A stretch of 64,000 nt of DNA. Source: Mayamaea pseudoterrestris (lineage: Eukaryota). Location: positions 744,001 to 808,000 of the forward strand of contig BROI01000013.1 in NCBI GenBank assembly GCA_027923505.1. Direction: 5' to 3'. Below the pieces are notes generated by a model. That model was given only the letters and a program-made list of their open reading frames with translations. It was not told the origin of the DNA and did not search any database. Shown in pieces: positions 3,930 to 56,006 of this stretch. The position numbers and the translations under genes are program-made. The number at the start of each line of letters is the position of its first letter. The first letter of the stretch is position 1.

Positions 3930-4396
3930 GAAAACGAAAAAGAAGAGCGAGATGTTGCGTCGGCAGAGTCAACTACCGAAGCTTGGCGAACGCTGTTGCG
4001 AATAAGATACTAGTACCACAGTATATACAATTGTCTCTTGCTTGCTTTGGTCAGTTTGTAGCGTCTGAAAAGTAGAAGGAAGGAAAGTCATAGTTTGAAC
4101 TGCGTAGCATTGCTGTTTGGGCAAGGCGCCGCCAAGACAAAAAGTCAACCTACGACTGACTGCTTTGAAGCTATATGTGATGGATTGATTACAAATTAAA
4201 GGTTAATCTAGTATTGCGCTATAACAGGACGTGGGAATGAACTCTTAGCCGGTACGAAAATACAAACGAGCCCAAACAACGTGCGCATGGAATAGCGCGG
4301 GAAGGCACTCGCATTGCTCTTGAGCCGCCGATGGAAAACGAAGTCACCCAAGGCAGCTCTCTGCATTCAGGTAAACATAATAAACTGCCACTGTGT

Positions 4397-17645: not shown

Positions 17646-18224
17646 GCGGCATATACCGCCTTTATCGGGACGCAGTATAGCGTTTCAATTGATGTTGGAT
17701 TGTTCTATTCGGCGATGGATGTTGCTCCGGCCATTCGTGTGTGGGAGATGCTGTAGTCTCATTCGCGGTACAAGTACAACCATTTGTAGATACCGTATGT
17801 TTTTTTTCAAAATTAATAGAATTATACTATTTTCATTGTCTCTTTTAATTGCACCATTCTGCTACAATACTTGTACTGTAAAGCATATGTGGCAGCGGGA
17901 GCAACCACATGTTGTGGTATCTCTCACTAGTTGTTATCAGTGACATAGCTAAGCCGTCCGTTTCCGTTCACTCTGGCGTCACATGAAAATATCAATTGTG
18001 GCAAGTATCGTGAAAAGACCTTCGGAGAGCTTCACAAGTGACTCATGTAGCTCGCACGGTTCATTCGACTTCCCCCACACGTCTGACGTTGCCGTTCGAT
18101 CATGGCCGCCGCAACCATGTGAGATGCAAGTGACGAGGTGTATCACAAAAAGTCTCGCCTCCTTGGAAAGTAATAGGAGAATTTACCATTGGCATCTACA
18201 TTAATCTCCTTATTTACTAGCTTC

Positions 18225-20431
18225 ATGTCTCCCAAAGATCAAGCAGCTGCAGCGACGAGCATGGTGAATGTTCCTCTCGGTTCCTCCGACGCTTCGAATC
18301 ACCCAGATGCCTCGGGCGGCTACTTTTTAAAGTGGAGCCACTTGACCAAAACGGTCGAAGTCAAGGACATGTCGTCCGGCGGTATCATGGGACGATCAAG
18401 TATTGCCGGAAAAGCGGTAGATGTCGTCAAGAAAGTGAATGACTCAAGTAACACGACGAGCAAGACGATATTGCATTCCGTCTCTGGCTACGCCGCGCCC
18501 GGCCAAGTGATTGCCCTCATGGGACCATCCGGTTCCGGCAAAACCTCACTGATGAACGTACTGAGCGGTCGCTCCCCCTTTCAGTCCGGTCAGTTGAGCA
18601 TCAACGATGTTCCACTCGTTTCCAAGCGCGACTTGAAAAAGATTTTGCACCACCAAGTGGCCTACGTCAAGCAGAACGACGTCTTCTTTGGACACTTGAC
18701 GGTGAAGGATCAGTTGACGTATACGGCGCTGCTGCGACTGCCGAATTCCACGAGCACGGCAAACAAGCATAAGGAAGTCGACTCGATCATTTCGCAGCTG
18801 CGACTCAACAAGGTGACGGATAGTCCGATCAAAATGGTTTCCGGCGGCGAGCGCAAGCGAGTCAATATTGCGACGGAACTATTGACGAATCCAAAGATTG
18901 TGTTGCTGGATGAACCGACGAGTAAGTTATGAATGAGAGAGAGAGAGAGTGATGGATTTTTGAACGCTTTGATCAGTGCAGATGATAGAACGAGGCCACC
19001 GAAAGCCGCGAATCAATTCACTTACTCATTTTAAACTTCTTCTACCATCTATAATTTACAGGCGGTCTTGATTCCTCTTCGGCGGTGCGTTTGATCCACA
19101 TGCTGCAGCGGATCGCCCGCGAGCAGCAGAAAACAATCATCACATCCATTCACCAGCCGTCCAGTGAAGTCTTCATGAGTTGCTTTGACCACTTGCTCAT
19201 GCTTTCGGAGGGACATGTCGTTTACTTTGGAACGCCAAAGGCGAGTTTGGGGTATTTGCAGAGTGAAGTTGGTTTGCCGTGTCCGCCTGGGTACAATGCG
19301 GCGGACCATTGGATGGATTTGCTGGTGAATGACACGCCGTTTGAGTTTGGAGATGATGCTGCTACTGCAAATGCCCAAGGCGATTACGATGTTATCATTC
19401 CCGGCCCAGATACAGTCGCAGCGAGGCGCAAGGGAAGTTTGCGTCGCGCAATCTTGCAGGAGGCGTGGAAGGAGCACGATGTCACGAGCGCCGACGAAAC
19501 GGAGCATGGCAACGCCAGCGAAAAGAGCAACGGCGACAATGCCGGACTTGACGCTGACAATATTGAAAAGTATCCAACTTCGTGGTGGCAGCAATACACC
19601 ATCTTGACGCACCGAGCGCTCAAGAATAGTCGGTCGGCCATTTTTACGCCGCTCAATTTGATCAAGAGTTTTGCGCTTGGACTCGTTGCCGGTTTGCTGT
19701 GGTACCAATTGGACTACACGGAGGCCAATGTATACAACATGACAAGTTTTGTCTTCTTCGGATGCACATTCTGGGTATTCGACAGCATGTTTATGGCGCT
19801 CATGGCATTTCCGGCCGAGCGAGATGTCATTTTGAAGGAGCGAGCGTCGGGATCCTACCGTTTGAGCGCCTATTTCATGGCCAAGACCACGGCGGATGCA
19901 CCGACGCGCATTTTGTTACCGTTACTTTACCTGTTTGTGTCATACTGGATGGTAGGCATTGACAAGACGTTTGTCGTGTTTATTGGAACTGTCGGTTGTA
20001 CCTTGCTGAGCGTCATGGCGGGTGAAGCGATCGGTTTGTTGATTGGTGCTGCCTTTTATGATATGCAGCAGGCCTTGACTGTCATGACTGTCTTTGCATT
20101 ATTTTTGATGCTTGTTGGCGGCTTTTTTGTTGACAACCCACCCATTTTTATTGCTTGGGGAAAGTATATTTCGCCATTCAAGTATGCGTTTGATGCATCC
20201 GTGCAGATAATCTTTCATCGCCCACTTCCGTGCGATGGATCTGGCGGTTTGGCCGGCATTTGTCCATCAGGCAGCGAAGGCACCTTTGTGGACGGAGCTG
20301 CTGTTTCGGAGGCGGTTGGTGTTCAAGGCTCTATTGGTTTTAACGTCGGTCTGCTTGTTGTCATGGCGCTTGTCCCTCGATATTTCGCATACCAATGCTT
20401 GCGCCGAAAGAAGGAAGGCGAGCGAGAGTAG
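18225..20431 (+). CDS. ABCG (White-type) half transporter, 2 exons (intron 18922-19061)
   Basis: Walker A GPSGSGKT, signature VSGGERKR, Walker B LLDEPT|SGLDS restored by splicing GTAAGT...CAG, SIHQP H-loop, C-terminal ABC2 membrane domain (ERASGSY). Confidence 0.93.
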
Positions 20432-42083: not shown

Positions 42084-43248
42084 GATGATCCGTCTCTGCA
42101 GGTTGACGCTGTGAGTAAGGCAGACGAAATCTCGTCATGGCCGAACATTTTTCCGTCGGCAAGTTCCTCGTGGCAGAAACGGAGCGACATAATGGCACGC
42201 CGGGCGAGTATGCCTGGCTCGTCGCTTGGCGTCGAACAAGGCGGAACATAAACGAAAGTATGTCGCACCACGACCAAATTGGCGATGAATCCGTCGATTA
42301 ATCGACCCACCACAGAATTTGCAAGCCGACGACTACGTGACAATGCAAGTTCAGGCCTCTGCTCCGCAGTGGCTTTGTTTCGAACGCGAGTCTACTTTGT
42401 GAATCGCCAGTAGTAATGCGGGAGAGACGCCCAACTTGAGCGTCAAGCGTCACGAATCACGAGCAAGCCTTTTGACGACTACCTTCTCGCTGTCCTCTCC
42501 ATCAATCTCGCAACCCGACTCTTCCGAAACAGTAAAATGATAGTTGCAGTTTGCTGCTCCACAGCAACGCAGTCTTTGAGCTTCTTCGTGTCAGATGCAA
42601 TTTCCTTTCTTTCATCGAAATTGCGAACGATCAAGGCTCGCGGCTCGCCGAATACAAGCAACAAGCACTCTCATTTCGGCAGTCCGCGTATTCGATAGTA
42701 TATGCTGCTCCGTATCGATCGTTTGCAACCCTTTTATTGTCCGCAAATCCAAAGCGACAAGTGATGCGTTCGCTGAAGAGACTAGACGATTGACAGTTGC
42801 AACGTCGCTTTTTACATTGTCAACCCTTAACACGAGCGCGACTTTCCACACAGCCACACAGCAACATGGCATTACCGAGCGATGCAACGCCCTGATATGA
42901 AAAAATGTGGCAGCCGCTAGCCAACTGGTTCTTGGGTTGTTATGAGTGACGACTGTGTATGGTCGCGTCGAATAAGGGGGGGAAAGCAGCCGACACAGAC
43001 TATAACACACGATTGCAGCTGAGATCAGTGTAAATGATGATGAGATTCCCTTTCTGTTTGTAGACGAGTGCATACCTTTTGAAAATGCAAGATCTGGCAG
43101 CAATTAAATAAAGCTTTTGAACTTTTAAATACTGCTCGGAACAAGCGATGAGTGGTTGGAGAGCCGTTTTCTTTTGCCGAATCGCAAGCTTCGCCACTCT
43201 ACAAGTGACAGTAGCGGAAAACTTAAAGAGCAATGCAATACTAACAAG

Positions 43249-46200
43249 TTAAGCATCTATGTCATACCCATACCGGCGATTCAGTTCCTCGTCGCTGACA
43301 AAATGCGATCCTCCACCGCATCTCCATCCGCCGCCTTGCTTGTACCATGTGAACCCAGCTGGACATGCACTGATGGCCCGAAGGCGTGCACGGGTAGCTT
43401 CCGTGCGACGTCGTTCCTCTTCCAGTTGAATTCTCACTTGCTCCAACCGCCTTCGCTCCATTTCTGCTTCGTGACGACGTCGCTCTTCCTCCTGTTCGCG
43501 CCGTTGGCGTTCCTCTTCCAGTCGTTTCCTCTCGAGCTCGAGTTGCGCCGCGAGACGACGCTTTTCCTCGGCAACAATCTCTGCCTGAATGCGAGCTTCT
43601 TCCTCGTCCAACAAGCGTTGCTCCTCTGCAAGTCGCTTGACTTCAGCTTCGTATCTCTCCCTGCATTCCTCGCTGTGTCTGACATGCTCGTCGTAAGCCT
43701 GCCTTGCTTGGAAGGTTTCATTCTCGTGGTCTTTATCTCGAGACTTGGCGGCCTGCAGCGCCGCCCAGACATCATCTGGCACTCCATCGTCCCTTCCATC
43801 GTCTTTTCCATCGTCCTCTCCATCGTCCCTACTCATTTCAAATTTATGCGAACCGCATTCTGAATCTTCGTCCTTTACATCGTCCGCCTTGCCCTCTGCT
43901 TGTTCGAATTGGAAACTTTGATCGCCCATTTCTGCTCCTTGGCTGGCGAATGCTTTCTTTTGTTCGCTGTTCGTAGATTCGGCAATGGCTGTAGGGAGCA
44001 AATCAACATCATTGATTCTTTCACTCATACCCGGACGTCTATGTTTTGGTTTGCGAGATGTGATCATAGCAGCCATGGCTTCGTCAACGTCGGCGAGTTC
44101 AATATTCCGACCGGTCGTCTGTTCTGTACTATCATACGCCCGAACAGCCCAATTAGATTTCGCCTCGTCCCATAACTGTTTCACGTCACGACCGTTAGCC
44201 CAGCCGTCGTAAGTGATGAGTTCTTCGCAACCAGTCCCAATCTGGTGCAATACTTCGCTATTGAGTGGCGAAAAGCCATCCCGTTGACAGCACCGATCGA
44301 AAAATGACGCACAATCCTGTGGGTCCCAGTCCGGAAACTCGAAAAAATGCTGAAAGCGACTTCGTAATCCACTGTTGGCTCGAAGCATTTCATCTATCTC
44401 GTAAGGATAACCAGCAATGACGATAGTCACGTCCTGATAGTCTTCGCTCGTCATACCGGCAACTAGCGTATCACATGCTTCGGCGCCAAAACTACCTTTC
44501 GAAAGATTGTAAGCTTCATCAACGAAAAGGAGTCCGCCTTTTGCTTCACGAAGTTTCTCGCGCACTTTGGGGGCTGTCTGGCCGACGTGCTGCCCTTGCA
44601 AATCAAGAGCTGCCACTTCCACCACTTTATCCGATGGTTTCAGCCCCAATCCAAACAATACGCGCGCGATGCTGCGAGCAACCGTTGTCTTGCCCGTACC
44701 TGCATTAGAAAATCTAACGTGAGTTAAAAAGATTTCAGTTAATCCACCATCGGCGCTTCTGCTCCTTACCTGGCGAGCCAGTGAACACAAAGTGTCCGAG
44801 TGTGGGCAGCCCATTGCCTTCCCGGCGAGCCACGGCCCATGTTTTCCTCAGACGTTCAACTTTCTCTTTAATCTTCTCCATTCGGAAAAGTGTTTCAAGA
44901 TCAGAAAGAGGGTCATGATTGGGATCAAGATTAGATATCTTGCCAATCCTAGCCATGACCATTGACTCCAGGGCGCTCTTTACATCAGACTCGGCAATGG
45001 ACTTCTCAATCACCGGGACGCTATGCACTCGCTCAGACCGGTTGCTTTTGGTCTCCTTCCAAATCTGTACTACATCGCGACCATTACCCCATCCGTCAAG
45101 TTGGCAGATACGGCTGCATCCTTCGTGCATAACGGCAGCGACTGTTTCCTGGAGCACAAACCCTTCTTTCGACGCTAACGACGTAAAGTAGTGAACACAA
45201 TCATCTGGCTTCCAATCCTCAAACTCAAAAAAGTTCGTGAAACGACTTTTTAATCCGACGTTGGTGTCAAGCATTCGATTTATCTCTGTCGAATAGCCGG
45301 CAATTACAATGATCACATCGGAAAAATCCTTGCTGGTCATTGCAGCGACCAAGGTATCGCAAGCCTCAATGCCGTATTGGCCTTCTCCTAATCCATATGC
45401 TTCGTCAATAAAAAGAATACCACCTTTCGCTTCTTTCAGTGCATCATTGACCTTGGTCTTCGTGTGCCCGACAAAGTCAGCCGTAAGGTTCTTCGCAGAA
45501 GTCTCGACAATTTTATTGGAAGGTAAAAGCTGGAGACCGAAAAGGATGTCCGCCATGGCTCTCGCGACTGTCGTCTTTCCCGTACCTTCAAATGAATTAG
45601 ATTTAGATGTTTTTTCGTTTGCAGAAGCTTATATACCAGAAGGTACTTACCAGGCGAACCTAGAAACACGAAATGGCCAAGGGTCGGTTCGTCGCCACCC
45701 TCACGTTGTTGGACGTCCCAGTCCAAACGCATTTTGTTGAGTTTTGCTTTTACCTTGTCCATTCGATACAGTTGGTCAAGTTGAGAAAGCGGATCAGCAT
45801 GTCGTTCACCGCGGGCAAGACCAGGATCCTCAATATCATTGCGATTTAATATAAAGTTTGTCTCAGATGCACGTTTTGCGGCCTTGAGCATTGCTTTGTT
45901 CACTAAAGTTTCAACGCTGCCTGCATTGCCAAAGTGTGTCTGCTTCTTCTGAATTTGCAATATATCTAAAGCTTTTTCTCGGAAGGAAAAGTCGGCGTTG
46001 ACTTCATTTACCTTTAGATACGAGTCAAGAATTTCTAAAAGTTCATTCTCGCTATAGTCCTCGAAATAGAAAGCTTGATCTTTCGGAAATCGGCGAGCAA
46101 GCCCAGGGTTTTGATTTTCAATCATCTTGATCATTTGTACTTCATATCCTACAAGAAGCACCGCAATATCATCAGACGAGGTGCCTTGGACCTTCTCGAC

Positions 46201-49200
46201 AAGCGTATCGAGCACTTGCTTTCCATATAAATTGTCATCGAGACTATATGCTGGGAACGTGTACGGTACAGTACAGAGGGATGGCATGAGTTAAACAAAG
46301 TTCACGAGAATCAGAAATCGCAGTGTCACCGAGCCATACCTTCGTCGACGATCAGCACCTTTCCCTTCGCGCCTTCCAAAATCGCATTAGATTTTGACTG
46401 TGATTCACCGACATGACTGCCAACAAAATCCGAAGCTGCCTTCATCACAACGCCGCCAATCGACAGAAAACCTAGTTCTTTCAAAAGGCGTCCATATAAC
46501 TTGGCGAACGTGGTTTTCCCCGTGCCTGCATACAACAATTAGCGATTAATGTCATGTGATTCTTGATACAAGTTGCACTCGACCTAACAGATACTCACCT
46601 GGATTGCCCATTAGCAAGCGGTTGAGGGACACCGGTAACTGCTGTTTGCCAAGGAGTTCTAACTGATAATTTGTGCCGCATAATTCCACAAAATCTTGGA
46701 CGCTCGATTTTATTCGTCTCCAGCCTATCTTACAGTCGATCTCATCCAGGACCTTTTGCAACTTTTCGCTTGATAGACGGGGATCTGTTCCAATCACATC
46801 TTCAATTGTCAGCCGCATAGTATCAAGACCAAAGTTCCGTCCAAGACGCGCCATTGCGGTTTGCGTCGCCAGTTCGAGGCGTCGGCGGACCTCCTGGACA
46901 AGGAAGAAAAAGGTGATTAGCAACAACTTGCTTTACGGCAGCAAGAACCACATGCCAACGAACACGTACTCTCGCATTGCCAAAGCCCTTTCCTCCCTTC
47001 ATTTTCGTCAAGCGTCGTCCGACTACATCAGACACGCCATCGTCCTCCTCCCATTTTCTCTTTGTTCGCATCTCGGCCCAAATCGTTTTGAGTTCATCCT
47101 CGTCAAAATCCTCGAATTGCACCTCGCGGAATCGGCTCTTCAGACCTTCATTATAGGCAAAAAACTTCTTCTGAAAGTCATCCTCGTATCCGGCAAGTAT
47201 AACTGAAATACGGTCGCGATCGTTTTCTGTTAACGTTAAAAGTTCATTCACGATTGGTTTCCCCTTGAAGTCATTGACTGGGTCAAGATCATAGGCTTCG
47301 TCAACGAAAAGCACTCCATTGAGCGCACTGTTGATAGTCTTTCGAAACTCATCAGCGCCATCATCTTTGACGGCTTGCGCAGTGCATTCGAAAATCTTGT
47401 TCTCAGCCCGAATTCCTGAATCACACAAGATGGCTGCAAACAGTCGGGCCACCGTTGTTTTCCTGGCAGTGACGGAAGTAGCTATGAGTACGTGTGATAT
47501 TGGGTCAATTCAGGCAGCGGCTTTGAGCTCGTACTTACCCAGTCCCTGGGTTACCTAAGAAGCAATAGTTTGCAGCTATCGAATTCGCTTTCCGCGTTTC
47601 ATCGTCCATTGTTTTCAGCTGTAGAGCTGTTTGCCATATGCGCAATGCTTCTTGTTTAACTTTCAACAAGCCCGTCAGGCGCAAGAGATCACTAGTTGCC
47701 TCAGATAACGTGTCCGCAGGATGATGAGTTTGGAGATCAGTCCATTCGCTCCATAGATCAGCGTGAGGATCCGACTTCTTAATGGCTGTGCTTTGCATTA
47801 GCGTCCCATTCACGATGTCGCGCTCGGCTTGGCTCAATACGTCAATCTGTAGAGGGAAAAACTCGAAAAACGTGGAGAGCAATCTAGTGCAATCACGGCT
47901 CTCGAGTCGAGCTGCCACTATCAAGGCCCATGGATGAAGCAAGTCATGAGTTGAGCGCACATGGCGGATGTACGTGTCGAAATGAGATTGAGCTTCAATT
48001 TGCGACCACTGCTGCAACAATTCTGCTGCCATGAGCAAGTGCAAAAGCGGGGCATCCAAAGTCTGTGACAAAGTGCGAATGTATTTGATGCCTTTCATTG
48101 CTGCAGCATCAGGATGAATGAATTGCATCTTATCCAAAATGCTCTGTTGGGCATTAGAAGGAATGCTATCATGATCGATGCCTCCGGTCCATTGCACATC
48201 AAGCTTGTAACCTTCAAGCCTTGTCGTCTGGAGCATACTTTCAGCACGCGCTTCTAGTTCTTCTGTAAAAGCAAGATCTGAGTCGACAGACGATTCGTCG
48301 TCCAGTTCGGCCTCAGTAGTCTGGACTCCATCTGGGTTGCTGCACGCGGCAACAAGCAAACACCCTTTGGGTGGTAGATTGAACCGCAATGATCGACTTT
48401 CCACACACTCGGGTTGTACGTCAGCGAGGCTTTTGGAGAGGTCGAGCAGCTGCTGTCGGGACAGAGTCAAACGGCAGAATGCAACGACCGGGTACGGATC
48501 AAAAACAAGCAGATTGTGAATTTTGTCAAGTTGGTAAGTCATTGAGTCGTATCCGTCGAAGGCAATTCCTCGAGCTAGCTTTTCCTTTAGCTTAGAATTG
48601 CTTGGTGGTGGGTCCTTAAGTACTTTCGTTTTTGCAACTGCAGCGTAACCAAGCAGCAACGTACAGGATTCTCCCTTGATCGACAAGTTAGCAAGATTCT
48701 CTTTGCTCCATAGCATGCTTATCATCCCATGAAAGCTATTGGCACCATTAACGAAAAATTTGGGATTGAAAGAATCCAATCCTGCATTCTTTCGTAGAAG
48801 GTTTCGGAAACAAGGAACACGAGCGCTTTGGAAGTACCACTTTTCGTGGATATCACTACATTCAAGCAACCTTTCTCGACAAATCTTTAGCAGCTTCTTT
48901 TCTTTCTGGATAAAGAGCTTGTCGCGGTTAGGAAACCATGTGATACATTCATCAGGAATGCCATGAAGCAGCTTTCTAAATTCGGCTTCTCCAGTAAACG
49001 CAGCCTGATTGTCGATCGCCCGATTAGCTTCGTCGAGCGAACAACTTGGGCAGTCAATAGGGACACCTTCTGAGCATTGCTTGATGCCTGGCACCGTGTG
49101 CTTTCCAGACCGGCATGTCCAAGTTGACGCGTCCAAGCAAGCTGCCTGGGCATTAAAGTCGCACGGAACCTCAAGCTTTTTGCTGCAATTGTTAAAATTC

Positions 49201-52200
49201 CAGCAGTCAACAAGCTTCGTAAAAGGGCAAACAATGTCGTTTTCACCGGCCGAGTACTGTTCAGCTTCAAAACACTTTGCCTCGACAGTGTGACCACATG
49301 CAAGCTTTACTTGCACGATGCTTAAGCATTCATGGATTGCAGCTCTGCTACTCAACATTGATACAAGTGTGGAGCAGCTCTTTGGTGTCACGTGGCCACA
49401 CGGAAGAACCATTGTAAGTGATTGATTGCAGGCCGATGAAATACTCCGGCATGCATCCGAAGAGAGCTTTTCAAGATCAAATGCAAGCCGGCTACTTTGG
49501 GATATTTCCTTGTCCTTGTAAATCTTCTCATAAACATCTGGCTCCCACAATGATGCTGAAACCAGGTCTTGCTTAACAAAACAAGAAACTCGTATCTCGT
49601 GTCCACAAAGCGGACTCCTCATATGCACCTTCACACGACAAGGCTTCGCCGGTGTGTATACTTCCGAGCACATGACTTCTTCAACATGACCGCAATTACG
49701 AACCAATTTAACTTTTTCGCGGCAGCCTGACAAACCAAAGTTCGACTGACGAGAAGACACGAGGCCTTCTTTAAACTCAAGCGCAGCAATCGGGGCGGTT
49801 ATACCAAGCGCCGTCAGCTCCTCTAGCTTCGTGCATGAGAGACGAACTGGGTGACCACAGGAGGGATGCCTTCCATTGACAAGTGTACTGCACGGTGAAA
49901 GGGAGCAATTTCGGGCAAAAGCTTCACGGCAGGCCATCGTCATTGTATGACCACATGTTCGAACAAGTGTAACTTTCTCTTGACAAGCGAAGTCCTGAGG
50001 ACCGTAAATAACACCCTCCTTTACTTGGCCAACAATTTCAGCATTGACCCCGGTCCAGTCGCTAAGCTTGAGCGCCACTAAACAGGGTACATCTTGAACG
50101 TGCCCACAACGAGGCAACCGAACGCTTACAAGCTGGTCGCAAACAAAAGTCTCGCGACCTGCTAAGATTTGACTTTTCCGACAGCACTGCAGTTTCTTGG
50201 AGTGGCCACATGGTGGATCGTATATGTCCTCCTGCTTACAGGCCACGAGATTGGGTTCAGCGTTATACATCGACAGCTCGTTGCACTTTACTTCTAAAAT
50301 ATGACCACACGATGGAAAGGTGTATGGAACTGGCGACATTAACTTGCAAACGGGAAGGGACATTTGACCGGCAGAAATTTGTCTATCCTTGCTACACGCC
50401 AACTTGCTGGTGTGTCCGCAGGGGAGCGTTCTTATCACCTGAGTGGGACACTGGTAAAAGGACATGACAGATTCATAACTCGTTGAATTTTGTGCAACCG
50501 CAGCATTCTTAAACGCTACGGAGCATGCTACCTTCCCGGGATGCCGGTCGCATGGTGACTCTAATTGCACTTCGCACTGTTTTCTATGCTGTTTCACGGG
50601 CCAATGACAGTCAAGCGAACAAAAATGTCCGCACCCAAGTTTATGCTGGCAAGGCTCTTTACAAAATCCTCGTCGAAGTTCCCGATCTGTTGATGCCAAG
50701 AACGTATTGCTGCGGTGGACTGGACAACAAAGAGGCAGCGCCGGCCCAGTTCTCACGCCGCTGAATAGTTGGTCACTGTTTTGTTGTGAATAGGTATCAT
50801 CTCCTCTCGCCATCTTGAGCTGCTCAAAGGTCTGCGCCCAATGAGCCGGCACACCAGAACTCTCGAAATAGCGAGTGTTTGCAATGAGGTAACATCCCAA
50901 ACGCGCCCGACTCAACAGGACTATCATGCGATTTACAAGCTTAACTGTGTGAAGAAGTGTGTTAAGTGCTAGCTTATAGAGTATAATCGATTAGCAGCCT
51001 CAACTTACCGAAACCAGTCTTCGAGTTTTCATCAACAACAAGACTACATATTATAATATCTTCTTCGTCGCCTTGGAAGCGGTCGACTGTTGATACGCGC
51101 ACAGTCTCATTGCCAACCGGTGCCCTCGGAAGCAGCTGCAAAGGTTGCAAATGCGGCTCTTTGATAAGCATCTCTCTCAACAACATTAGCTGCCCTTTGT
51201 ATGGAGTCAGCACGGCTATCGATGATCGTGGGACGCCACACTCAACAAGATAGGCGACGAGCGAGCAGGTCATTCGCGCTTCGAGCTGGTTAACTCTTGA
51301 CACGCCAACTTTGGATCTCCCCTGCTGACCTTCGTGAGTCCAAAGGAAGATGTGAGGAGCTACGCCTGGAATCTCGCGTCCTGCAGTTGATGAAGATTCA
51401 ACTATTGCCTTCAGAGCTGGACTGGCTCTGGCGCCAACAACCTGCGATTTACAGGTTTCATGATCCTCAATCGCTGTGATATCTTCATAAAAACCCCGAG
51501 TCAAATCACATATGTTTGACCTCATGCGCCGTTGGAGCGATAAGACCGTCGAAGGTACCGCGTGACTCGTAGGGGCTTCAATAAGTCGCTCAAACATGGA
51601 ATTGTTGATTTTGTTGAATACTTCAAAGTCGAAGCGACTCATGACCGAAGGTTTAAGCTGCCGATGATCACCAATGAGCTCAAGTTTGACTGTACTTTCA
51701 GTCAGACAAGAAAATAATAAAGGTTCGAGGACTTCAGAGGCCTCTTCCACAATCACCGCGAACGGCCGCGTCTTCCGAATGGATTCCAAACGAGTAATGC
51801 AACCAACCATCGTACCACCAATCACTGACTTGTTTTCGTAAACTTTGGCTTTCGCGCGGATTTTCGCCTCCTGCAAGTCTGCTCGCGCCTGCAATAGTGC
51901 ATCCTTTATTTCCATGCCCGCTGCCGTAAGCAATCGTCGCAGCTCGTCCATCAAAGCCTGCACTGCTGACCAGCGCTCCTCTAGCGTCATCTCCCATGTC
52001 CAATCCTTAACATCAACAAAGCTCGATGCATCTTGATTTGTTGCTGCGTCATGAAAAAGGTCCATATCCTGTTTGCTCCTATCCGAATAGCTTGACTCCA
52101 CTGAATCACCATCGTCGACTTCAAAAACTTCCCGCAAATGTTGCATCGCTTCTGCTTCGTCGTTCAGATCAGCTTCATCGCTGTCAATAATTTCTGCAGC

Positions 52201-55200
52201 TTTATCGTCGGTTACGACTAGGTTAAAACTTTCATGTGATGACACAGAGGCAACGTCACCATCATCGCACTGTAGAGCTGAATCAAATCTGCGCAACGGA
52301 CTTCCTTCAACAGCGCGAATCTGGCCACAAGGCACTGGTTCTGCGGGTTCGTTCTGATCGACTTCCTTGCAAATTGTTTCCACAGTTGCTTCCTGCGGTT
52401 TCGAGTTTAAAGGTATATTTGTCATGGCGTCGGAGACACGAGAATGATCAAAGCAAAACTTCGACCCCGGCAGGCATATACCTTTGCACGGTTTTCCGTA
52501 TCTGTTAATTGCACTGCATTGCGCTGGAGTTACTTCTAATTGCGCAGGCCGATGACGATGCACCTCCTCATCTGTCATTGTCTCAATTTTAGTTGATTCG
52601 AACATAATTTTCGCCTGACTGCGATGGTCCACACAAAAAGGAACCAATGCAGAAATTGCTTTGCCCTGGCAGGGCTTCTTCTTTTTTGTCAAAGCAAGGC
52701 ACTTTAGTACTAAGTGCTCCGAACAATAATTTTTTTCAGTGTCACTTAACCGAGGGCAGCCAGGGTAGCAGCAAATTGGATGTTCCGAGCAGACATTTCG
52801 AGGCGGAAGATCCTCGGCAAGTTCGGAGATAATTCCAAGTTCAACACATCGCCAGCAAGCATGTTGAGTACAGAATTTTTGACCGTCTGCCAATTTCAGC
52901 AAACCACAATCTTCAAATTCACAACTATGCATGAGACAGTAACAGCTGTCGGAATCCTTGCATTGGCTTGTACAACGGAAGCCTCGATCCGCCCGACAAA
53001 TATGCTGGTCGCAGAGCCTGATATCCGGCGACACGGCAAGGTTCGTGCACCTTTCAAATCCACATTTCGGTAGAGGCGTCTTACCACTAATCCACTTCCA
53101 GAGCAATTCTCCCCAGTGATCCAGGCTTTCAGACGTTTCGTCGCCAACGAGTGCAGGCACTAAGATGGAGCCTGAATTTGTCTGCAGCAGGCATTTCACT
53201 CGTTGACTGCGCGATTGCGCGTCGCCTGGCGGGCTCACGAAACGAAACTTGTCGACAATTTCTGTCGGCTTCGGCTTGACGCCCTCTGTCGTGCTTGCAT
53301 CAGCCGAATTCGCCTCTCGAAGCAGATGCCTTTGACAGATGCACTCCATCAATACATCCGTCGCTTCATAACTCGCCTTCCGCCTGCTCGCATCATCATC
53401 GTTACGAAACATCAAATGAAAATATGATAGATAGGTTGACAATGTACGATCTATCGTAGCCTGCACCAGGTCGCGGCAAACATTCAAATTGTCTACCAGC
53501 TTGCGTGCAACAGTCACCTGAGCATCAGACTGATAAGCGCTTCGCTCCGAATATTGTAGAAGCCGATCATCCTTGCACTGTCCACCGATGCGAATAAGAT
53601 GCCTCCCATTTAACGAGGGCTCAGCTGCTACCAGATCGACCAAGAACTCGTCAATTGCATGGTTCTTGTAAGAAAGTACTACATATTCCAAAAAAAGCGT
53701 CAGCATGTAGCGACAGATAAAAATGAAACAAAGTACGTCATGCAAATCTTACCGAGTATAGGAGATGCGCCAACTGAAGCACTCTTCTTGATCCAAAGAT
53801 CCCGAATTAGCATAAGCGCCCGAACCAGCACTACCCCAAGGTAAGACTTGCCGGTGCCTGAAAAAAGCCCGATAACGTGTCAGAAAGAATATAATTCGCA
53901 AACCGCAGCCACATGGAGAGACGCACCTGGAGGACCTTGCGTGAGATGGACTGGATCGCGCAACGCTTCAACGAAGCTGATAAGCTGCATTTTATCCAAA
54001 GTCGTTACCGTAACGAGATGCTGGAGCTTGGAGCTCAGCGTCAATCGCAGACTTTCATCTCTTCGAATTTCGCGAATAGGCTCGAGCTGGCTGTTAGCGA
54101 TCATCTCATCCATCAGCGGCCTGTAATCGACACTATCAGTTGCGGACAACAACATCTCTAAGTTCATATCTGTGCGAGGAATTGGACTGTCCTTCTGCAG
54201 ATTAAGGTGCCTTCCGTTTTCAAACGGCAATTTTTCGTGACGCTGGCGGTCCAGAGCCCGAAGAACTGGAACCCATTCTGGAACAAAGGTCATGCAATCA
54301 ATAATAGCAACGGGCAAGCCTGCTTCGAAGTAGTCGGGATCGCAGCCGACAATAGAGGAGATGTTAACTGCGATCTCTCCAGCGTCACGCCGGCGGTCCT
54401 CTCCACGTGAGTAATCGTGATTGACGACTTCTGCCCATTTGATGCGATCGCCATTCGACAATGTAGAGCCCCGAGCATGAAGACGCACAAGGCCAACAAG
54501 GTTGGGAGTAGCCAGACGCTTCGTTGTCCTCCAGTGGATGCTCGGTGGCGGATTACGACTCTTAAAGTTCACAAGATACAGCACTCCATCAGGATCCACG
54601 TGTTTGATTCGAGCGTCATAAATATGCGTAGAAGCGTTCTGACCAGGGACGCCAAGATGATTTGTAATGCAACGAGTGGCGCATTCGGCGCATAAAGCGT
54701 CGTGTGATCGATTTCGGCAACAAAATTCCACGGGCCGTCCACAGCCCCTTGAGCGGCACTTGAGGTTACCGACTTGATTTCCGTTTGTTTCCGCGACAGG
54801 CCAAAGAGCATTTCCACAAGCTCCATTGTTGCCGCGGGCGCGGCAGTGAGGAGCAATCGCGGCATGCCCATCAAAAAATGTCATGGCCGTCCAAAGGCGA
54901 TGAACAACTGACATGTACTCGTCAGCCGACTCGTACACACCTGCCTTTCCAATCTTCATCTTGGGGCACGAGGATGGAGAAAAGATATGCGGATTGGCAA
55001 GCCATTGAATCGTCGGCATCTGCCAAGCATCGTATCCAGTTCCGCCGTCGCTGGCGCACGTTGCTTCGATATCCGTTTCACTCAACCCAATATCACGGGT
55101 GCGGACTCGCCACGGCTTGCCCAAATCTTCCAACAAGTCCATCAATCGCCCGCCAACATCTCGATGATCCTTGAATTTTTTTCGAAGCTTCGACTCTGCG

Positions 55201-56006
55201 TGCAGGATAATGTTGCTTAACGACGACCGGATTTGGTCTGCCCCACAATCCCAATCGAAAAGAAGCGTTCTAGTAACTGCGTCTAAAACCGTCTTGACGA
55301 CTGTAAGAACATGATCGTCCGACGAGTCCGCATCCACCTCTTGATCGAGAAACTTTGTCGCAGCTGCTTCAAACTCCTCAGGTGGCGGCGGGTCAACCGA
55401 CGAAGATCCAGGAATCTTTGCCAAGACCTCCAGCATGCAGCATCTGGTCTTGTCGTCGAACTGTCCATGATTCAACCAGCAGCGGCGCCAAAGAGTTGCA
55501 CTTTTTGACAGTTCGTCACCGAGCTTCTGCACGGGGATTATCGACAAGTGCTTGATAAACTTGCTCGTGTCGGTAGCAAGCTGCTGTCCATTGCTCTGCT
55601 GCTGCTGCTGCTGCTGCTGACTTCGTCCACCTGCTCCTTGGGTACTCGCGCCGCCACCATGCGAGAACCTGCAGCTGCTACCAAACCGACAGGAGCCAGT
55701 ACTTTGCCACTCGTGACAAACACCAGCTTGAAAACCGCCGCGGCCGCTGCCACGACCACCGCCTCCGCCGCGTCCTCCAGCAAAATTGCCACGACCGCCC
55801 GCATTGTTTCTTCCGCCACGGCCAGCGCCGCCTCCTTGCTGGTTTCCACGACCACGGCCAGAGCCGCCACCGCCGCGACCACTGTTACTGCCGCCTCGAT
55901 GCGGCACGCCTCCACCAGCACTGGGCCCACCGACATGACGAAACCTGCAGCGAAATCCGTGCGGACAAGCCCCAGTCTGGCTCCACTGGTGGCATATCCC
56001 CGACAT
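43249..56006 (-). CDS. Giant 4033-aa ZNFX1-like SF1 helicase / NFX1-finger / 4x CbbX-SpoVK-type AAA+ fusion. Exons: 56006-53927, 53857-53753, 53678-51009, 50944-47539, 47462-46970, 46893-46599, 46525-46340, 46250-45651, 45585-44770, 44699-43249
   Basis: Nine GT-AG introns of 64-89 bp join in phase (12102 nt of CDS). Helicase motifs GPPGTGKS, SYKNHAID, VEEASE, IGDHRQLKP, SMFERL, LTPYKGQ, TVDRFQGDEED, NRMIVLLSRAR. Four G(N/S)PGTGKT...DEAY...SRF/RRF...GN(A/G) AAA modules. Two C-x8-C-x5-C-x3-H fingers and repeated CGH motifs. Confidence 0.9.

Follow-up and report, generated by a model that had tools for sequence, protein, structure and literature searches.

The 64,000-nucleotide (nt) stretch analysed here, which we call the window, covers positions 744,001 to 808,000 of contig BROI01000013.1 (assembly GCA_027923505.1) from Mayamaea pseudoterrestris, a freshwater pennate diatom. 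It contains a giant gene whose nine introns all lie in or beside catalytic motifs, five of them splitting the five Walker A loops (P-loops) of the encoded protein. The coding region occupies window positions 43249-56006 on the minus strand in 10 exons, with the ATG at 56006 and the stop codon at 43249-43251. When the nine introns were removed by script, a single open frame of 4033 amino acids (aa) without internal stop was obtained, which is letter-for-letter the public protein P0001, hypothetical protein MPSEU_000674800. A model-made first-pass annotation of this DNA had given the coordinates 44700-53926 for this intron pattern. This span reaches from intron 9 to intron 1, while the coding gene itself extends over the larger interval given above.

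In domain order, the protein comprises two CCCH fingers, a ZNFX1-like superfamily 1 (SF1) helicase, NFX1-type cysteine repeats, four CbbX/SpoVK-type AAA+ modules and a charged C-terminal tail. Pfam matches were obtained for zf-CCCH, AAA_12 (7e-26), AAA_11 (2e-10) and PF00004 with AAA_lid_6, the PF00004 matches lying in exons 5, 7, 9 and 10 and the AAA_lid_6 matches in exons 8 and 9. The sequence also contains four GxPGTGKT and four (V/I)DEAY motifs. With a PF00004 core carrying Walker A and Walker B, followed by AAA_lid_6, the four modules are predicted to be AAA+ domains of the CbbX/SpoVK type. Similarly, the helicase is predicted to belong to the ZNFX1-like SF1 enzymes (Upf1/ZNFX1-type), as judged from its AAA_11 and AAA_12 halves, its GPPGTGKS loop and the NFX1-type cysteine repeats downstream, which form a cysteine-rich region between the helicase and the first AAA module. 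The precomputed domains of the public record, and homologues named 'NFX1-type zinc finger-containing protein 1', agree with a ZNFX1-like helicase. The combination of this helicase with three or four AAA modules is also present in Seminavis, oomycetes, chytrids, Hydra and plasmodiophorids.

Splicing and placement of the nine introns

All nine introns reported by the first-pass annotation were found in the places it had given. Each of them runs from GT to AG on the minus strand and measures 64-89 nt. Intron 1 (53858..53926, 69 nt, phase 1) splits the helicase Walker A as GPP|GTGKS between the exon flanks CCAG|GCAC, where the bar marks the intron here and below, and its joint was read in run X2 (the runs are described below). 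Intron 2 (53679..53752, 74 nt, phase 1) lies in the helicase motif Ia region at PIL|VLSYKNHAID, and intron 3 (50945..51008, 64 nt, phase 1) lies at TGF|VKLVNRMIVLLSRAR, directly before helicase motif VI (TGF|VKLVNRM). AAA1 is entered by intron 4 (47463..47538, 76 nt, phase 2) in Walker A, GNPGT(G)KT, and by intron 5 (46894..46969, 76 nt, phase 0) at GNAR|EV, the start of the lid in the sensor-2 region. AAA2 carries intron 6 (46526..46598, 73 nt, phase 1) in Walker A, GNP|GTGKT, with the flanks CCAG|GCAC and a joint in X4, together with intron 7 (46251..46339, 89 nt, phase 1) in Walker B, VDE|AY, with joints in X2 and X4. The Walker A of AAA3, GSP|GTGKT, is split by intron 8 (45586..45650, 65 nt, phase 1; flanks CCTG|GTAC), and that of AAA4, again GSP|GTGKT, by intron 9 (44700..44769, 70 nt, phase 1; flanks CCAG|GTAC). 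Spliced contigs were found for introns 2, 3, 4, 5, 8 and 9.

The splicing data consist of contigs from four public runs (X1-X4) of one study, of which the run kind is unrecorded, mapped on 43100-56200; the repeats at 55588-55628 were skipped in this mapping. The X2 contigs contained joints for introns 1, 2, 3, 4, 5, 7, 8 and 9 (8/9). The X4 contigs contained joints for introns 6 and 7, as well as loose ends matching the exon sides of introns 4 and 5. Across X2 and X4, the transcript-like contigs thus gave joints at 9/9 sites, and the predicted junctions were borne out. These joints read CT..AC on the plus strand and fall exactly at the nine modelled places, and no joint beyond the nine was found in 43100-56200 among the X1-X4 contigs. 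Run X1 gave one unspliced contig identical to the window, which may be its source DNA, and X3, made from the sample of X1, gave unspliced, indel-rich contigs. The long exons of 2080, 2670 and 3406 nt, described earlier as free of introns, were indeed uninterrupted as far as the contigs reach. By their ends, their precise removal and the restored frame, the nine introns are U2-type spliceosomal GT-AG introns. A U12 type was ruled out by the 5' ends (GTAAGT, GTGAGT, GTACGT and similar).

The statement that every P-loop is split was also correct: the protein contains five matches to the pattern G..G.GK[ST], and each of them is interrupted, four at one phase-1 site. Introns 1, 6, 8 and 9 separate the first and second bases of the Gly codon following Pro (G-x-P|G-T-G-K), and intron 4 separates the second and third bases of the Gly codon that comes next in its loop. 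If introns were placed at random, the probability that 5/9 fall within the 115 Walker A sites among 12096 would be P=8.7e-9. Conservation was measured in 7-residue windows of an alignment of 19 full-length family members, as identity across the 18 homologues. The mean window identity was 0.83 at the nine sites and 0.34 at random sites, and none of 100000 random draws was as high (0/100000). Individual sites stood at percentiles 78-99.9; the lowest was that of AAA4, a module missing in many homologues, and the intron 5 site (GNAR|) stood at the 93.7th percentile. All nine introns are therefore in highly conserved windows, as expected from the earlier description of their position in or beside catalytic motifs. 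The placement is non-random, and statistically strongly so.

A proto-splice bias had been put forward earlier as one cause of this placement. In the spliced coding sequence, CAG|G occurs 46 times, four times in Walker A, and all three introns at such sites lie in Walker A (3/3, P=2.6e-4), so a generic CAG|G preference is insufficient. The result is different once codon conservation is required. Among 16 Pro-Gly dipeptides seven are conserved, of which 5/7 lie in Walker A and 4/7 are split at P|G, and the chance of all four split conserved Pro-Gly being in Walker A is 5/35 = 0.14. Hence the clustering reduces to introns in invariant Gly or Pro-Gly codons, and the proposed bias is right in kind, though too weak when taken as a CAG|G preference alone.

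The intron sequences were compared with each other (36 pairs) and, by local alignment, with 60 nt of each flanking exon. Only introns 7 and 9 (z=4.2) and introns 1 and 3 (z=2.9) showed any likeness, neither being a Walker A pair, and no intron resembled its flanking exons (z <=1.9). Thus there is no sign of an introner family, of recent copying from loop to loop or of birth by tandem duplication. As candidate origins, an introner family was rejected on the comparison of the nine introns within the gene, in which the similarity of 7 and 9 is marginal, and tandem duplication of an AGGT-containing exon segment was rejected on the same unlikeness of the introns to the adjoining exons.

Intron positions in relatives and the age of the AAA modules

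DNA of relatives came from a metagenome scan of nine loci, with four family members (L001-L004), and all other positions in relatives were inferred from the ends of open reading frames (ORFs). The 26-kb contig carrying P0002 and P0065 was not among the nine loci. L001 has introns 2 and 3 at the same codon and phase as Mayamaea, and its helicase-loop intron lies at GPPGT|GKS, 6 nt beyond that of Mayamaea. L003 has introns at GNP|G in both AAA1 and AAA2, plus one at DRFQ|GDEED in the helicase. Its AAA2 intron is at the same site as Mayamaea intron 6, whereas the Mayamaea AAA1 intron lies instead in phase 2 of the next Gly. No intron was present in L003 at GNAR| or at the intron 3 site, and P0011 is likewise without the GNAR| intron. 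L002 has one intron, in the cysteine-repeat region, and L004 is intron-rich with other helicase positions. At the three intron-poor loci, 5/6 clear introns lie in catalytic motifs. Separately, the reading frame of L003 shifts at 3980-4029 with no recognisable intron, which may be an assembly indel or a real frameshift.

Proteins from unannotated assemblies (JGI, ENA and Logan) were evidently predicted ORF by ORF. Such proteins continue into an intron until a stop is reached, and the first residues read from the intron are those expected of introns starting with GT (GK = GTAAG, GE = GTGAG, GM = GTATG, GA = GTGCG; also GT). Ten helicase-region fragments, at 44-51% identity, were followed in this way. 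Three pass the helicase loop and all ten pass the intron 2 and 3 sites; six stop in the AAA1 Walker A, at GNP|G in three cases, within the following Gly in two and beyond GKTT in one. One more continues through AAA1 and stops at the first Gly of the AAA2 loop. Among the fragments matching the AAA3 exon, 12 end at G-x-P|G of the next (AAA4) loop, which is the intron 9 site, two end after GKTT, making three with the wider AAA-region set, several start just before GTGKTT and others read through. Over the AAA region as a whole, 15 fragments read through the Walker A of AAA1, 24 that of AAA2, at least 23 that of AAA3 and at least 11 that of AAA4, with scattered breaks. Given so many read-throughs, the presence of loop introns is therefore patchy. 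P0009 and P0190, which lie on one contig of one organism, have the AAA1 loop intron only. Breaks in Walker B (DE|A) were also seen in other homologues, in AAA4 of P0070 and in AAA3 of P0232 and P0271, in phase 0 or 1.

The helicase loop was examined further with the 450 residues ending at GPP, which were searched against 1.84 billion cluster representatives and gave 137 new proteins. Among the matches listed, 88 representatives contain QGPPG, of which 44 read through and 44 stop within the loop. These stops fall at GPP|G, as in Mayamaea (4), in the second Gly (8) or directly after GK (32), and only about nine of the 44 that read through reach their end no more than 100 residues later. The ends add four helicase-loop sites (Q|G, the first Gly in phase 1, QG| and the first Pro in phase 2), and the distinct sites inferred amount to at least eight in the helicase loop and about six in the AAA loops. 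Judged by sequence similarity, diatom-like sequences seem to include both the GPP|G and the GT|GK form, one cluster holding an Attheya entry. By their nearest named relatives, one GT|GK form would be oomycete-like and one phase-2 form chytrid-like. When intron positions are compared among orthologues, introns are thus found in the same loops in relatives (L001, L003 and the ORF ends), while their presence is patchy and their positions are shifted.

Two further observations concern this loop. The 32 representatives that stop after GK are among P0350-P0440 and end in GPPG(T/S)GK followed by V, which fits a phase-0 intron after the Walker A lysine; this GK| group shares about 30% identity with every named homologue compared. 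P0345, a Seminavis-like fragment, continues in frame across a helicase Walker A intron that lacks stop codons (GPPGTG ... YIGKSYLGV) and so gives both borders of a GT|GK intron from the protein sequence alone.

The age of the modules was assessed by a module tree built with Walker A itself omitted. AAA1, AAA2 and AAA3 each formed a long-stemmed clade of their own, with members from diatoms, oomycetes, chytrids, Hydra and plasmodiophorids in every one. On this tree, the AAA1-3 triplication is far older than the diatoms. AAA4 pairs with AAA3 inside the diatoms (Mayamaea and Seminavis, Shimodaira-Hasegawa-like approximate likelihood ratio test (SH-aLRT) 97) and separately inside Phytophthora (99). 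Introns 8 and 9 can accordingly be copies of one intron, because AAA4 is a diatom-lineage copy of AAA3. On the other hand, since AAA1-3 are shared from diatoms to Hydra, duplication cannot explain the identical sites of AAA2, AAA3 and, in relatives, AAA1 unless the intron predates these groups. The domain duplication invoked in the first-pass annotation therefore holds for the AAA3/AAA4 pair (introns 8 and 9) and does not extend to AAA1, AAA2 and AAA3, which are ancient separate clades, or to the unrelated helicase loop. The fourth AAA module, in itself, appears to have arisen or been homogenised separately in diatoms and Phytophthora, AAA3 and AAA4 being mutual closest in each.

A bacterial origin of the triplication, which would have made independent intron gains necessary, was considered as well. 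The bacterial multi-AAA arrays cluster by themselves with no one-to-one match to the eukaryotic modules, so this comparison is uninformative on the origin and on independent gains. The arrays themselves, in P0195, P0224, P0251, P0269 and P0289 (Bacillus, Melioribacteraceae, Ignavibacteria), are tandem series of 5-7 CbbX-type modules that share 29-32% identity with the eukaryotic one. Modules of one lineage group together, a pattern suggestive of arrays that were amplified in tandem independently or evolved in concert.

Outside the giant gene, an ABCG-type transporter with Pfam ABC_tran and ABC2_membrane is encoded at 18177-20431 on the plus strand. Its one predicted intron (18922-19061, 140 nt, phase 1, GTAAGT..TTTACAG) splits DEPT|SGLD directly after Walker B. 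An intron at a motif in this gene points to a general tendency of the genome rather than to a device peculiar to the giant gene. The earlier statement that most neighbouring genes lack introns was checked by a crude ORF-joining scan of the window, which gave mostly false positives, and the intron of the ABC transporter was the only convincing one.

The two ends of the giant protein have features of their own. In the N-terminal region (window 55500-55950, minus strand), the two CCCH fingers are separated by an extended low-complexity stretch rich in Gly and Arg, which is followed by a poly-Gln run. The C-terminus (window 43249-43400, minus strand) consists of a long Glu/Arg-rich stretch with the Cys/Gly-rich motif CPAGFTWYKQGGGWRCGGGSHFVSDEEL as its end, and this motif was found again at the C-termini of homologues from Phytophthora and chytrids and of other fragments.

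Explanations for the intron pattern

The account that we favour, with a confidence slightly above even, is that these are ordinary constitutive introns whose positions were set by invariant protosplice-type codons, that one of them was copied from AAA3 to AAA4, and that the loops have undergone repeated intron turnover among relatives. The Walker A motif G-x-P-G-T-G-K-T is necessarily coded CCN GGN ACN GGN AAR from its Pro to its Lys, and this coding would supply several G|G, AG|G or AAG| junctions, that is, exon flanks of the protosplice type. Selection on the protein would keep such junctions constant over hundreds of millions of years, and introns of the family would be fixed and persist at the invariant Gly, Pro-Gly and Lys codons of the catalytic motifs. 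Because the junctions would be kept constant, the few introns of an intron-poor diatom lineage could become concentrated in the Walker A loops of a 12-kilobase (kb) coding sequence. The duplication of AAA3 that produced AAA4 in the diatom line would have carried one intron along, and the introns of the helicase, AAA1, AAA2 and AAA3 loops would stand at equivalent codons through equivalence of the codons, not through shared intron descent. In relatives, the same loops would have gained, lost or shifted introns repeatedly, Walker A thereby acting as an intron hot spot. The cause would then be sequence and conservation rather than function, and the different positions would represent independent events.

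Several points weigh against this account. Strict [AC]AG|G flanks are present at only 3/9 introns (1, 6, 9) and G|G at 5/9, the flanks outside the strict form being CTG|G, TGG|G, AAG|C, TCG|T (twice) and AGA|G, and in the AAA1 loop an unused CCAG|GG site stands directly beside the used one. The window's one other true P-loop, the transporter Walker A GPSGSGKT (18522-18545), is uninterrupted. With respect to the relatives, ORF ends are inferred sites and not splice sites seen in DNA, which was provided by L001-L004 only. The proteins with such ends are mutually related and not independent, and some read-throughs may be transcript-derived or annotated, hiding introns. The 44 loop stops come from a top-150 ranked list that favours fragments reaching the helicase loop, and a single clade carrying a single old intron may account for all 32 GK|V representatives. 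The helicase-loop introns of L001 and Mayamaea may also go back to one ancestral intron, displaced by 6 nt, rather than to two gains, since L001 shares introns 2 and 3 with Mayamaea. More generally, gain, loss and sliding become separable only with a species tree.

An alternative is ancient inheritance with selective survival, in which an intron stood in the ancestral AAA Walker A (and Walker B) before the triplication and another in the ancestral helicase loop. Most other introns would have been lost in intron-poor lineages. The motif introns would have survived because imprecise deletion there is lethal, and the positional differences would be due to sliding. The G-x-P|G phase-1 site is present in AAA1 of L003, P0003, P0004, P0009 and P0190, in AAA2 of Mayamaea, L003 and P0265, and in AAA3 and AAA4. 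Walker A introns are the most widely shared ones in diatom-like homologues, whereas introns 2 and 3 are found in Mayamaea and L001 only, and their sharing by L001 suggests a common ancestral structure that included the loop intron. Phases 1 and 2 in the same Gly codon would fit sliding by one base. According to PMC3488318, however, such one-base sliding is real but rare, and beyond one base there is no supporting evidence, whereas the relatives show at least eight helicase-loop and about six AAA-loop positions that lie up to 18-27 nt apart. The triplication moreover predates the split of stramenopiles, opisthokonts and plasmodiophorids, so the intron must be about that old. Yet its presence is patchy even at 55-66% identity, where P0190/P0009 have the AAA1 intron only and P0089 and P0094 pass AAA3 or AAA4, and long intron-free ORFs exist, such as P0013 with 3990 aa on a 14.4-kb contig. 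We thus regard descent from such ancestral introns as rather unlikely. Spread within the gene, by which a single Walker A intron gave rise to those of the other loops by copying, is less probable still. Possible routes are reverse splicing into a near-identical junction in this or a sister transcript with reverse transcription and recombination, short-tract gene conversion between the segments that code for the loops, or insertion of an element with both splice sites provided by its target-site duplication. Introns 1 and 6 share the exon context TCCAG|GCAC though their domains are unrelated, and four loops use the same codon position and phase. The in-phase offset of 6 nt between Mayamaea and L001 would be expected from alternative use of duplicated flanks, as an insertion duplicating a few flanking bases would permit such a shift without change of the protein. 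Against this, the five Walker A introns are without mutual sequence similarity and no intron is like its flanking exon, so a spread of this kind, if it happened, is old and has left no trace.

A functional role was also considered. The first-pass annotation had raised splicing as a safety switch. In such a scheme, regulated retention in catalytic loops would give ATPase-dead truncations or decaying transcripts and so shut off a potentially harmful 4033-aa motor. Any of the nine introns does give a premature stop if retained, seven within the intron itself and introns 5 and 8 after a frameshift, and every ATP-binding loop would be affected. Retention of intron 4 reads GGG TAA, an immediate stop exactly as had been described. 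Yet 8/9 intron lengths are not multiples of three, and short introns commonly give a premature stop when retained. As the stop is common to all nine, intron 4 is not special and the loop sites are not singled out, and a stop anywhere upstream would do equally well. The transcript-like contigs show the spliced form. Homologues at 50-66% identity lack some or all of the introns and whole lineages have intron-free genes, so the arrangement is dispensable. The switch thus found no support, and we consider it very improbable. A broader proposal goes beyond the present gene: the DNA of Walker A (GGN CCN GGN ACN GGN AAR) may be a true hot spot of intron insertion across eukaryotes, a stretch of 24 nt that already provides flanks suited to splicing and was entered many separate times in ZNFX1-like helicases and CbbX-type AAA modules, where flank-duplicating insertions could let lineages fix splice-site pairs a few bases apart, for instance 6 nt and in phase, with the protein unchanged. 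This proposal is tentative and less likely than not, and we would not yet put it on a par with the constitutive introns at invariant codons described above.

The question of where introns are born, and whether shared positions reflect parallel gain at protosplice sites or inheritance, is a long-running one, and the present gene offers an unusually clean case: an intron-poor diatom with nine introns in 12 kb, each in a catalytic motif. If the shifted positions are independent gains, Walker A would be a defined and repeatable target for studying the mechanisms of gain. If the broader hot-spot proposal is true, one could predict parallel intron gain in the catalytic loops of P-loop nucleoside triphosphatases, and this family would be a natural system in which to follow intron birth. 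There is also a consequence for annotation, in that ORF-based calls on eukaryotic metagenome contigs of this family break at P-loops and lose the catalytic motifs. The intron pattern is probably uninformative on the protein's own biology. As a pattern, it illustrates well a type of bias that is already known, and the possible cross-lineage hot spot in Walker A is worth following.

Comparison with known systems

No report of introns in Walker A loops was found in the literature searched. The Mayamaea genome paper (PMC9724779), which gives 30.6 Mb and 11,019 genes, does not use the word 'intron' in the passages searched. As to the protein, the AAA_11 and AAA_12 halves and the CCCH fingers are features that it shares with ZNFX1/Hrr1-type SF1 helicases, and the four PF00004 plus AAA_lid_6 modules are shared with CbbX/SpoVK-type AAA+ ATPases. 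Unlike the Mayamaea protein, human ZNFX1 is not described with a CbbX-type AAA array in the accounts consulted.

Introners are transposon-derived intron families (Gozashti et al. 2022, PMC9860276). They represent a mechanism that can place many introns in one genome, and can do so at sites where a duplicated flank supplies a splice site. The Mayamaea introns differ from them in being short (64-89 nt) and without family resemblance within this gene.

The protosplice introns described by Sverdlov and colleagues, as presented in Rogozin et al. 2012 (PMC3488318), are closer. There, introns within conserved Gly and Pro codons lie predominantly at (A/C)AG||Gt, which is given as direct evidence for protosplice sites. 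The Mayamaea introns are alike in lying in invariant Gly codons after Pro or Thr codons with CCAG|G-type flanks, in several phase-1 G|GN splits, and in residue conservation holding the site in place. They are unlike those cases in affecting one motif type in one gene (5/5 Walker A) and in having strict (A/C)AG|G flanks in only 3/9, and the homologues of the gene differ by carrying introns at many neighbouring positions in the same 8 codons. The same source describes parallel gains at hot spots in Daphnia. Those gains are recent and seen as DNA polymorphisms, whereas the events considered here are old, mostly deduced from ORF ends, and independent by inference. What the two systems would have in common is the recurrence of introns at or beside the same location in independent lineages.

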